IMG/VR virus record: IMGVR_UViG_3300020183_000051
Length of the DNA stretch: 20,000 bases
DNA from: an uncultured virus (IMG/VR IMGVR_UViG_3300020183_000051)
Lineage: Duplodnaviria > Heunggongvirae > Uroviricota > Caudoviricetes
Direction: 5' to 3' (one strand)
The notes beneath the pieces were generated by a model. It did not search any database and was not told the origin of the DNA. It saw only the letters and a program-made list of their open reading frames with translations. Of this stretch, positions 4,030 through 12,747 are shown piece by piece. The stretch's first letter is position 1. Every line of letters starts with the position of its first letter. A program made the translations under genes and the position numbers.

Positions 4030-4758
4030 TCAAGTTTTTTTTCGATTTTTCCATAAGTTTTTACGGTGGGTTATAGTTTTAGCCTTTCCTTTTAATTTTT
4101 TACTTATTTTGGATCTTCGGTTTTTTTCAATATCTTCCAGTGGAATTCCTAACGTCCAGCCTTTTATAGAAAAACGTTTTCCTTTCAAAAATAAATGTAA
4201 CCCGCCACTATCTATGTTATATTTTTTTCTAAAATCGTAAGGAGTTAAAGTCTCTAATATATCAAGATTTTTATTATAAAATGTATACTTTTTATGTATA
4301 TATCTATAGTTATTCTTTCCCAAGTGAGCAATTTTATTTTTTAAAGTTTGATCCGCCGTTTTGGGTTTGCCATACATATAAGAGTTTGGTCCTTTATTCG
4401 CCAAACTTTGTTTTTTTCTAGTCTGTTCGCTTCTGAAAGATTTTCCTGACCAACTTTTGAAATAATTACATAAATTCTCTATTCCATAATATTCTATAAA
4501 TGCAGATTCTAAGGCTAAAGCTTCTAACTCATTAACATTTTCGGTTAATTTTTCGTACAATATAGGAATGTTTTCGTCAATTAATTTTTTTATTTTATAA
4601 TATAATTTATAATTTGTTTTATTGGGAATTTTTCCTAATCTAACATCCTTTTCATGTTTATACATTCGGTTCTTACAACCTTTACCAACATAAAAAGTCT
4701 TGCCGTCAGAAGAATCGACAAGTTGATAAGCGTAATACTTATTATCAAATTTTTCCAT
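4030..4758 (-). CDS. Free-standing GIY-YIG homing endonuclease with NUMOD3-like DNA-binding repeats
   Basis: YYAYQLVD....TFYVGKG..NRMYKH (GIY-YIG), EALALESAFI (catalytic Glu helix), LCN, and RSEQTRKKQSLANKG (NUMOD3-like). Confidence 0.85.
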   Translation of the reverse strand: MEKFDNKYYAYQLVDSSDGKTFYVGKGCKNRMYKHEKDVRLGKIPNKTNYKLYYKIKKLIDENIPILYEKLTENVNELEALALESAFIEYYGIENLCNYFKSWSGKSFRSEQTRKKQSLANKGPNSYMYGKPKTADQTLKNKIAHLGKNNYRYIHKKYTFYNKNLDILETLTPYDFRKKYNIDSGGLHLFLKGKRFSIKGWTLGIPLEDIEKNRRSKISKKLKGKAKTITHRKNLWKNRKKT

Positions 4759-6166: not shown

Positions 6167-6967
6167 CTATATTATTTTTTTTTTGTCTTCCAAAAATATA
6201 ATGTTGTTATACGCCAATAACAAACAAATAGCCAACGGATCAAAAACTGATATTAATATAGAAATAAACCACTTTACTACTCTATCCATCGTTAAATTAA
6301 ATTCATCTGCCACAAATTTAAAGGTAATTATATCACTTTGTTCTCTTCCCGATAATTTAAACTGATTAATAGTCTCATTTAACTTAAAAATTTCATCGTT
6401 GGCATCTTGAATTTTTTTGTTTTCTCCCTCAATACTTTTTTCGTTGCTAGAAATTAACTCCACCGTTTGAGACTGTATCTCCTGTAGCTGAATAGGATTT
6501 CTAGCTATAAATATATTCGTCATCGCCTCACTCAATCTACGTTCCTGTGAGATCCGCAAATCTTCAAGACTTTTTATTCTCGATTTCGATTGTGAAATTT
6601 TATCAACATATGAGGTTTTCTTAGATTCATATATTTGAATTTTTTCCTCGTTAGCCTTATCTGCCAACGAAGACCGTTGATACGATGCACTTAAATAACC
6701 AAAGATACCCAATGACGTTATAAACATTAATACAATAACACTCAGTGTTAAATAAAACTTTAAAAGCCGGCGTGTGTCTTGCCAATATCTAAATAAATAA
6801 CTCGTCGCTACTAATTTACCTAACTCTAACGAAAATGCCATGATTATAGCCGATTGTTTAGAACCAGAAAATAACATCGCAATTCCAATTATAGAAAAAT
6901 ATGCCGCACACGCAGCAATAAATAATGAAGTAATTCCTACCAAATTTTTAAAATTAAACTTATTCAT
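6167..6967 (-). CDS. Multi-pass membrane protein with central coiled coil
   Basis: Three N-terminal hydrophobic segments (AAYFSIIG, LELGKLV, ITSLGIFGYLS), a coiled coil, then a C-terminal TM (ISVFDPLAICLLLAYN). May be frameshifted at an A10 run near its end. Confidence 0.8.
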   Translation of the reverse strand: MNKFNFKNLVGITSLFIAACAAYFSIIGIAMLFSGSKQSAIIMAFSLELGKLVATSYLFRYWQDTRRLLKFYLTLSVIVLMFITSLGIFGYLSASYQRSSLADKANEEKIQIYESKKTSYVDKISQSKSRIKSLEDLRISQERRLSEAMTNIFIARNPIQLQEIQSQTVELISSNEKSIEGENKKIQDANDEIFKLNETINQFKLSGREQSDIITFKFVADEFNLTMDRVVKWFISILISVFDPLAICLLLAYNNIIFLEDKKKII

Positions 6968-7619: not shown

Positions 7620-8282
7620 TCAAGAATTTTTAACAGAATTCCACGCGTCATATTCAACCCTACACGCCAAATAATCCGCATGGTGAATAATTCTAGGAAG
7701 ATTGCTTTTTAAATCATGATCATTATTGTAATTCTTTAAATAAGAAGTGTTCGCCTCATTATATAAACCATCCGACAACTTTATAGCCAAAGTTTCTCTC
7801 CAACTACACTTAATTTGATATTGCTGCAAAATATATAACGCCCTATCCGCAACATCCATATATTGCAAATTTGAATTAAATTTAAATGCCTCACCACGAT
7901 TTTTAATATACCAATCGTTATCCTGTGGCAAATAATACTCTCCCTGCTGCTTGTCACCCAACTTTCCTAAATCGTGATGCAACGCCGAAAACGCCAACTC
8001 CTCATCCGTAAAATCTATCGTAGCCCCCATCACTTCCCACAACTTCTTTACCCCCAAAGACGCCCGATATACATTATTAATATGATCCAAATAACCACCA
8101 ATATATGCATTGTGAAAATGTAACTTTGAAGAAGCCGGCGCGGTAATCAAACGCAATCCAAACTGATCTTCATCGTATAAATATAACAACCTTTCAAGTC
8201 TCTCTCCCGAAAATAAAGACTTTATTAAAGATAAAAAATTTTCGTAGTTTGTTTGTAATTCAACCTCAGTATATTCTTTCAT
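7620..8282 (-). CDS. HD-domain phosphohydrolase (YhaM-like)
   Basis: APASSKLHFHNAYIGGYLDH...ALHHDLGKLG...IIHHAD. Confidence 0.88.
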   Translation of the reverse strand: MKEYTEVELQTNYENFLSLIKSLFSGERLERLLYLYDEDQFGLRLITAPASSKLHFHNAYIGGYLDHINNVYRASLGVKKLWEVMGATIDFTDEELAFSALHHDLGKLGDKQQGEYYLPQDNDWYIKNRGEAFKFNSNLQYMDVADRALYILQQYQIKCSWRETLAIKLSDGLYNEANTSYLKNYNNDHDLKSNLPRIIHHADYLACRVEYDAWNSVKNS

Positions 8283-12231: not shown

Positions 12232-12270
12232 AATAAAAAAAATTATTGGCAAAAATTAAAATTCTTTGCC
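12232..12270 (-). terminator. Probable terminator of the tmRNA/ribozyme transcript
   Basis: Minus strand GGCAAAGAAT-TTT-AATTTTTGCC hairpin (12248-12270), then AATAA and a T-rich tract. Confidence 0.55.
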
Positions 12271-12311: not shown

Positions 12312-12371
12312 CAGAATATTCTCGGCGTTACTCAAGCACAACCAACGTGAAGGTGATATTCTACTGTGCTC
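12312..12371 (-). ncRNA. Minimal HDV-like (theta-type) self-cleaving ribozyme
   Basis: P1 GAGCACA/UGUGCUU (G1-U wobble), P2 UAGAAUAUC/GA(A)UAUUCUG, P3 ACC/GGU, L3 UUCACGUU, P1.1 UC/GA, GUAAC linker with no P4, J4/2 C-C-G-A. The order of segments matches the HDV double pseudoknot. Confidence 0.85.
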
Positions 12372-12747
12372 TGGAGATGTCGGGAGTTGAACCCGAGTCC
12401 AATAATTATACAAATTACCTGACTACACGCTTATAGTTTTTAATATTTTCGTAAAAACAATTCTAAAACTCAAAAGTTGTTTATCTTAAGATTTATATTT
12501 CAACATTAACTTAAATCACTTTTTAATGCCAATCACAATAATGTCATAATTAAAACTATTGTGCATCATCCTAATTATGGGTGACTTATAATTAAGCCAC
12601 AACAAGAACTTCTTCCTCAACAGGAATGAAGTCATATGCGATTACGTTTTTAGCGTTTATCTTCTTGATAGATTCTTTACGAGGCCAACTATCATCCCCG
12701 ACGTGCCAAATACTCTCTCTAACTATTGTCGAAACCATTACATCCCC
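12372..12747 (-). ncRNA. ssrA: tmRNA (one-piece, CCA not encoded)
   Basis: 5' GGGGATGTAATGGTTTCGAC and 3' GGACTCGGGTTCAACTCCCGACATCTCCA. Acceptor stem GGGGAUG/CAUCUCC with the G3-U alanine determinant. ATAAAC then resume codon GCT opens tag AKNVIAYDFIPVEEEVLVVA* (12592-12654). Confidence 0.95.

Follow-up and report, generated by a model that had tools for sequence, protein, structure and literature searches.

The 60 nt that directly follow a phage tmRNA gene form, as judged from comparative sequence analysis, a genuine theta-type HDV-like ribozyme that is conserved, has an L3 of 8 nt and is so placed that its predicted cleavage would make the 3′ end of the tmRNA. Gene and ribozyme lie in a 20,000-nt stretch of DNA (hereafter the window; positions are counted from its first letter) that is part of a 103,351-nt IMG/VR virus record from an uncultured member of the Caudoviricetes (IMGVR_UViG_3300020183_000051; CheckV completeness 34%). 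The fold, its position, its conservation and its recurrence behind the tmRNAs of many other phages make it probable that the ribozyme generates the tmRNA 3′ end and that tmRNA, ribozyme, spacer and terminator form a single unit, with cleavage, healing of the cut end and a benefit to the phage as the predicted parts of this reading. If it is true, a tmRNA would for the first time be seen to owe its 3′ end to RNA acting catalytically in cis, and not to host RNases.

HDV-like ribozymes cleave on the 5′ side of the first P1 base, and theta ribozymes, a minimal form of them associated with tRNAs, have been described from Caudoviricetes of the gut (Kienbeck et al. 2024, PMC10879173). According to the same paper, theta ribozymes at tRNA 3′ ends cleave themselves in vitro with Mg2+ and are inactivated by a C-to-U change; tRNAscan-SE was the sole tRNA finder of the survey, which also yielded 526 non-tRNA matches, the majority lying over 200 nt away from any ORF (PMC10879173).

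The tmRNA gene of the window occupies positions 12372–12747 on the minus strand (376 nt) and is the only one that ARAGORN finds there, with the tag AKNVIAYDFIPVEEEVLVVA*; it also matches Rfam family RF00023 (122.8 bits, E 5e-48). The gene has a tRNA-like domain with the G3-U70 pair, a discriminator A and a tag frame; the latter, AKNVIAYDFIPVEEEVLVVA plus stop, lies at 12592–12654 on the minus strand (ARAGORN coding part 94–156 of the gene). Its acceptor stem, GGGGAUG/CAUCUCC, carries the alanine-identity G3-U pair and leads into discriminator A12372, and the bases after it are GAG, not CCA. G12371, position 1 of the ribozyme fold, directly follows the tmRNA end given by both ARAGORN and Rfam RF00023, and the earlier note's description of a tmRNA without encoded CCA and with its discriminator at 12372 holds.

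The ribozyme itself, as parsed from the sequence, covers 12312–12371 (minus strand, as are all of its parts; 60 nt, no P4), and the predicted self-cleavage site is the junction 12371–12372, between A12372 and G12371, where an HDV-like ribozyme would cut 5′ of P1 position 1. All seven bases of the P1 5′ strand GAGCACA (12365–12371) pair with the 3′ strand UGUGCUU (12334–12340; placed by the parse and by relatives), and P1 is closed by the wobble G12371-U12334, the G-U pair that HDV-like ribozymes have at +1. A single G (J1/2, 12364) is followed by the P2 5′ strand UAGAAUAU (12356–12363), which forms eight pairs with AUAUUCUG (12312–12319), an 8-bp P2 on comparative grounds. Beyond an unpaired C (12355), the P3 strands ACC (12352–12354) and GGU (12341–12343) enclose the 8-nt L3 UUCACGUU (12344–12351), whose U12350 and C12349 form P1.1 with the GA at 12332–12333 (U12350-A12332 and C12349-G12333). 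The linker L4, GUAACG (12326–12331), takes the place of P4, and the same 6-mer serves as L4 in the published theta list; then come J4/2, CCGAG (12321–12325), with the candidate catalytic C12325, and an unpaired A (12320). The nested double pseudoknot of P1, P1.1, P2 and P3 is complete, and the earlier note, which had claimed a 60-nt element starting at G12371 with every part of the HDV double pseudoknot, is borne out on this point and on the coordinates of P1 with its G1-U wobble, of P3 (ACC/GGU), of the 8-nt L3 and of P1.1 (UC/GA). Two of its details change: the linker, which stands without P4, is corrected from GUAAC to the 6-nt GUAACG of published theta ribozymes; and P2 loses the proposed bulged A, as the relatives favour an 8-bp P2 with C12355 and A12320 unpaired and a J4/2 that reads CCGAG (in 16 of the 25 unique relatives the P3-proximal position does not pair). 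C12325 is kept as the candidate catalytic base, in the register given by a sister lineage.

As parsed, J4/2 is led by C in all 25 unique relatives, a count to be read with the fact that the parser itself demanded a C; when A, G or T was demanded instead, 25, 22 and 26 of 37 unique tails still parsed, and this control does not discriminate because loop lengths were free. No HDV-type family of Rfam matches the element at E up to 10. This miss says little, since at the gathering threshold no HDV-type family is found on L014 either, a locus whose ribozyme matches a published theta sequence. The nested minimum-free-energy fold recovers P1, P3 and a terminator hairpin, at an energy no better than that of shuffled sequences (z = -0.30). 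The hairpin in question (12270–12248), with an 8-T run behind it (12242–12235), is a terminator-like element at 12235–12270 on the minus strand that starts 41 nt after the ribozyme; two terminator-like sites were found against 0.3 expected, and the frequency of promoter-like sites was not above chance. With a terminator 41 nt downstream, the ribozyme belongs to a trailer dedicated to the tmRNA rather than to the leader of an mRNA.

Both strands of the 103,351-nt contig together contain a single P3-L3-P3′ core, exactly behind the tmRNA, and the same is true of the full fold. Simulated contigs (300, first-order Markov, of the same dinucleotide make-up) gave a mean of 0.28 core matches and no full fold; with 0/300, an origin of the fold by chance is ruled out.

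The contig bears the markers of a T4-like phage (Gp23 major capsid protein, Gp20 portal, gp25 baseplate wedge, prohead protease and T4-type terminase), with genes for PhoH and Hsp20 inside the window. Among the 23 sequencing runs listed for the locus, 20 are lake-water metagenomes, as DNA contigs, from which the record may itself derive, and no RNA run is among those listed. A blastn search with the locus at 'distant' settings against 50,697 GenBank phage records returned no match. An ORF resembling homing endonucleases (GIY-YIG plus NUMOD3) lies amid structural genes at 4030–4758 of the window (minus strand), about 7.5 kb from the tmRNA. Eight tRNA genes are located outside the window, at 6305–27042 of the contig; five of them encode CCA (Arg, Ile, Leu, Lys and Met) and three lack it (Gly, Glu and Asn), and the contig search found no ribozyme core after any of the eight. 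With CCA on five of the eight tRNAs and the core behind none of them, the ribozyme goes specifically with the CCA-less tmRNA.

Four IMG/VR loci are identical to the window at 733–736 of 736 positions. More distant is a sister lineage (L019 and L021), whose tag, AKNVIAYDFTPEGVEVEVAA, shares its N-terminal half with that of the window tmRNA. Between the window and this lineage, identity reaches 92% in the ribozyme (55/60) and 76% in the tmRNA, against 60% upstream and 58–60% downstream, and the five differences within the ribozyme are one P2 pair (two bases), one base of L4 and two of J4/2. The P2 change, from U12356-A12319 to C-G, is compensatory; the other three fall where the sister lineage reads GUCACG|CUAAG, with a canonical CUAAG in place of CCGAG, which fixes the register and makes C12325 the J4/2 cytosine. 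At 92% identity, and with every change at a position that is variable or compensated, the catalytic core is under purifying selection. Such selection argues against an inactive relic, or a mere structured trailer, behind a tmRNA whose 3′ end is made by host RNases (RNase Z or E, then exonucleases). That reading could draw on the 8-nt L3, which differs from the tested theta design, but four tRNA-Ala loci whose P1 helices differ are also followed by an L3 of this length, and we hold a relic or passive trailer to be extremely unlikely.

How widely the arrangement recurs was assessed with a relaxed pattern that fixes only the T arm and an acceptor ending in CUCCA, followed 14–24 nt later by the core RCY-UNCNCGY(N)-RGY; everything 3′ of P3′, that is P1′, P1.1′, J4/2 and P2′, was absent from the pattern. 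Scanning IMG/VR in this way returned 54 loci (26 with a stricter first version), and once G or A is allowed at +1 the full fold is present in 54/54, where P1′ pairs at every position, P1.1′ is paired, J4/2 begins with C and P2′ follows; when the 3′ halves were shuffled, 0/7,400 kept the fold. The identical pattern, run over 596 Gb of bacterial and archaeal genomes, found 83 stretches, and 4 of the 80 examined parse. Three of these 4 (L222, L255 and L266) come from metagenome-assembled genomes, on contigs where the match is linked to a tmRNA, and the remaining matches are GC-rich chance matches that provide a natural negative control. L266, from a sheep colon (match 451–504), has the tag ANNLIAA and encodes CCA, followed by one A and then the ribozyme, so that one extra base would have to be trimmed.

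The gene upstream of the ribozyme at the 54 IMG/VR loci is a tmRNA in 44 (29 called by ARAGORN, 15 by Rfam only) and a tRNA-Ala in 6, and in 4 there is no program call. An acceptor-pairing test resolves the four: three are 78–80-nt RNAs with a tmRNA-type 5′ end (GGGGAUG...GG.UUCGA) and no tag frame, which from their sequences look like mini tmRNAs consisting of the tRNA domain only, and the fourth is a tmRNA-like RNA of 336 nt. The ARAGORN tags at ribozyme-linked loci fall into about 15 families, some of the tag calls looking doubtful. In all 29 tmRNAs called by ARAGORN the first base of the ribozyme comes directly after the ARAGORN 3′ end, which is the discriminator in 21/29, while in the other 8/29 the tmRNA keeps a single C, the one that begins CCA. 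In one tmRNA lineage (L146 and 13 further loci, among them L158, L161 and L164) the ribozyme begins one base later (…CUCCA-C|G), and the predicted cut would leave that first C in place.

Recurrence behind different kinds of RNA is also what one would expect of a selfish or mobile passenger that settles on CCA-less tRNA-like 3′ ends and brings the phage no benefit, as unrelated phages have the same type of ribozyme after tRNA-Ala genes, after full tmRNAs and after mini tmRNAs. A passenger, however, fits poorly with a ribozyme that has changed less than the tmRNA and either flank and whose first base follows the discriminator directly, or after one C, in 29/29 ARAGORN-called cases; nor does an endonuclease gene adjoin it, the nearest GIY-YIG ORF being about 7.5 kb off. 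We therefore consider a passenger without benefit very unlikely, and favour a ribozyme that makes the tmRNA 3′ end. The frequency of the arrangement was gauged in a separate IMG/VR sample, in which 80 tmRNA-like 3′ ends were read among at least 117 stretches: 43 encode CCA and 37 do not, and a ribozyme lies behind 1 of the 80, which belongs to the window lineage. Phage genes are counted in this sample together with tmRNA ends of hosts at the borders of prophages. With 1/80 of the ends read carrying a ribozyme, the arrangement is best described as recurrent but in the minority.

Several variants widen the description of the family. An A instead of G stands at +1 in 11 of the 54 loci (L149, L151, L163, L169, L172, L181, L182, L183, L185, L187 and L195; position 472 on the match strand). 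There the A pairs with a U and the rest of the fold is complete, in contrast to the G1 that HDV-like and theta descriptors demand; among the 25 unique tmRNA-linked ribozymes, 6 have A at +1. A variant of the 8-nt L3, UCCACGUU, occurs behind tRNA-Ala too (L152, L167, L190 and L192), with P1 helices that differ from one another; an 8-nt L3 in such settings indicates a sub-type that recurs and that would escape the published field format with its 7-nt L3.

Covariation was evaluated among the 44 program-called tmRNA loci, which reduce to 25 unique ribozymes. The set consisted of the 21 of these 25 that have a 7-bp P1, aligned with MAFFT over the 5′ 37–40 nt; the four with a 6-bp P1 were dropped. 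(A MAFFT alignment of the whole ribozyme misaligned the members with a 6-bp P1 and those bearing P4, and no count was drawn from it.) Standard pairs fill 99.2% of the cells in the set of 21, against 68.9 +/- 2.0% in shuffles; 75 cells are changed on both sides, against 21.3 in shuffles (for both measures, 0/500 shuffles reach the observed value); and the covariation score is 0.836 against 0.244. When partners were slid by 1–3 columns, pairing fell to 26–45%. The only two unpaired cells come from MAFFT placing the L3 gap inside P3′ in an 8-nt L3. Changes on both sides affect six of the seven P1 pairs, two of three in P3 and one of two in P1.1. Across the 21 relatives the closing pair of P1 is GU in 11, AU in 6 and GC in 4, and the P1.1 pair types are CG (14), GC (5) and UA (2). 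In P2, positions 2–7 are paired in 25/25 unique ribozymes, with 2–4 pair types each, and the P3-proximal position is paired in 9/25. The earlier note had called for a look downstream of phage tmRNA ends for a conserved fold and covariation: the fold is there at 44 tmRNA loci, and the covariation is strong.

Among known systems the window element is closest to the theta ribozymes. It has the same order of parts (P1, J1/2, P2, P3, an L3 of the form U-NN-NCGY, P3′, P1′, P1.1′, a short L4 and a C-led J4/2) as well as a cut site at the 3′ end of a CCA-less, tRNA-like acceptor (PMC10879173), and its UC/GA P1.1, GUAACG L4 and CCGA J4/2 all appear in the published list (PMC10879173, supplementary file 6). 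It differs in that its substrate is a tmRNA and not a tRNA, in that none of the tRNAs of the window phage carries a ribozyme, in coming from lake water rather than the gut, and in an L3 of 8 nt (one extra U) where the published format has 7. Laid against the theta field format as it can be read from the sequence list, P1(6–7)|J1/2|P2(7)|P3|U|NN|NCGY|P3′|P1′|NN|short L4|C-led J4/2|P2′, the element misfits in L3 alone. It also falls outside the tRNA-association rule of that survey (a cut within 5 nt of the end of a tRNA found by tRNAscan-SE), its neighbour being a tmRNA, and the offset to the tRNA-like end is 0.

With the HDV (delta) ribozymes the element shares the nested double pseudoknot, the G-U wobble at the cut site and a cytosine at the start of J4/2, the candidate catalytic base in the window; unlike them it has no P4, its P1.1 consists of one U-A and one C-G pair instead of two C-G pairs, and it matches no HDV-type family of Rfam. 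The genomic HDV ribozyme likewise has an 8-nt L3, as in the window element. Such ends are also made by proteins: RNase Z acts on CCA-less precursors, and RNases E, III, T, PH and R act on E. coli tmRNA. There, too, the discriminator or its neighbour becomes the 3′ end to which CCA can be added; in the window the cut, as predicted, would be made by RNA in cis and would leave a 2′,3′-cyclic phosphate instead of a 3′-OH. Phage-encoded tmRNAs have been reported before, including the tRNA-domain-only form of mycobacteriophage DS6A (PMC4131195, PMC11915505), and the ribozyme-linked loci have in common with them a tmRNA of the phage's own and its mini forms. The accessible text of these two papers does not mention 3′-end formation, and the word 'ribozyme' occurs 0 times in each.

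The course of events that we propose is as follows. The phage would transcribe tmRNA, ribozyme, 41-nt spacer and terminator as one unit. The trailer would then fold into the minimal HDV-like double pseudoknot and, with C12325 and Mg2+, cut between A12372 and G12371, a reaction that by analogy with theta ribozymes it should be able to carry out by itself. The freed tmRNA would end exactly at the discriminator, the same point at which RNase Z would process a tRNA precursor lacking CCA, and the released trailer, about 137 nt long with a 5′-OH, would carry off the ribozyme and the terminator hairpin. The earlier note's proposal that the ribozyme generates the tmRNA 3′ end is supported by these comparisons: the fold is present, conserved and covarying, and the predicted cut coincides with the ARAGORN 3′ end in 29/29 cases. 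Cleavage of the HDV type leaves a 2′,3′-cyclic phosphate, and for this reason the end would need healing before CCA can be added: a host or phage enzyme would have to open and remove the phosphate, after which the CCA-adding enzyme would build CCA and alanyl-tRNA synthetase would charge the tmRNA. The 5′ end would still be made by RNase P. The earlier note's wording that host RNases are replaced goes beyond what the comparisons show: RNase P, healing of the 2′,3′-cyclic phosphate and CCA addition are all still needed. The benefit we propose for the phage is a 3′ end independent of host endo- and exonucleases.

The contig, a 34%-complete record, was also searched for proteins that could act on this end. 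Among 108 of its 110 ORFs of at least 70 aa there is no CCA-adding enzyme, SmpB, RNA ligase or kinase-phosphatase, and a six-frame search of the contig (34% of the genome by CheckV) for PolyA_pol and SmpB found nothing. A 220-aa ORF at 7620–8282 of the window (minus strand) matches the PHROG 'metal-dependent phosphohydrolase' (E 2.8e-08), with a sub-threshold hit to Pfam HD (E 0.042); as a speculation, it may be named as a candidate opener of the cyclic-phosphate end.

The same cyclic phosphate, which follows from HDV-like chemistry as the product end, could alternatively make an active ribozyme a means of control, either as a timing switch that keeps the tmRNA unchargeable until it is healed or by way of an uncharged RNA that titrates SmpB, a role proposed for tmRNAs reduced to the tRNA domain. 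Three loci pair the ribozyme with 78–80-nt tmRNA-like tRNA domains that have no tag frame, and a DS6A-like tRNA-domain molecule strongly inhibits tmRNA (PMC4131195). The window tmRNA, in contrast, keeps a full tag frame, with an N-terminal half that the sister lineage has conserved and an end that reads VVA or VAA, as fits a working tagger, and no healing enzyme or regulator was identified on the 34%-complete contig. Control as the purpose of the ribozyme is in our judgement unlikely, and 3′-end formation for a tmRNA that tags is the reading we retain.

The earlier note did not recall a theta ribozyme attached to a tmRNA and left its novelty to the literature. That doubt was justified: the main text and nine supplementary files of the theta survey contain no mention of tmRNA (PMC10879173), and a full-text literature search returned no publication in which a tmRNA is connected to an HDV-like or theta ribozyme, the co-occurrences examined being unrelated. 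Two sequences that the survey lists as 'isolated' are nevertheless ribozymes behind tmRNAs, no. 1814 being that of L014/L168 and no. 3563 that of L017/L175 (PMC10879173). The kind of ribozyme is therefore known, and what appears to be unpublished is the tmRNA as its substrate and its recurrence across many phage tmRNAs. Part of the theta ribozymes published as 'isolated', including at least these two, would gain a function by standing directly behind tmRNAs, and the theta family is widened in three respects: L3 can have 8 nt, +1 can be A, and the habitat need not be the gut. Ribosome rescue encoded by phages now faces the question of who removes the cyclic phosphate, and when. A broader idea, which we offer tentatively and think rather doubtful, is that small HDV-like ribozymes might be the phages' general means of giving exact ends to stable non-coding RNAs, with tRNAs as just one instance; full and mini tmRNAs might then be a major hidden class among the 'isolated' theta ribozymes, and dependence on healing might time the takeover or block of host ribosome rescue and tagging. 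One further locus, L163, combines an 80-nt mini tmRNA and an A1-type ribozyme (from position 472) with a ROOL RNA about 50 nt later (579–950; RF03087, 195 bits, cut by the end of the locus).
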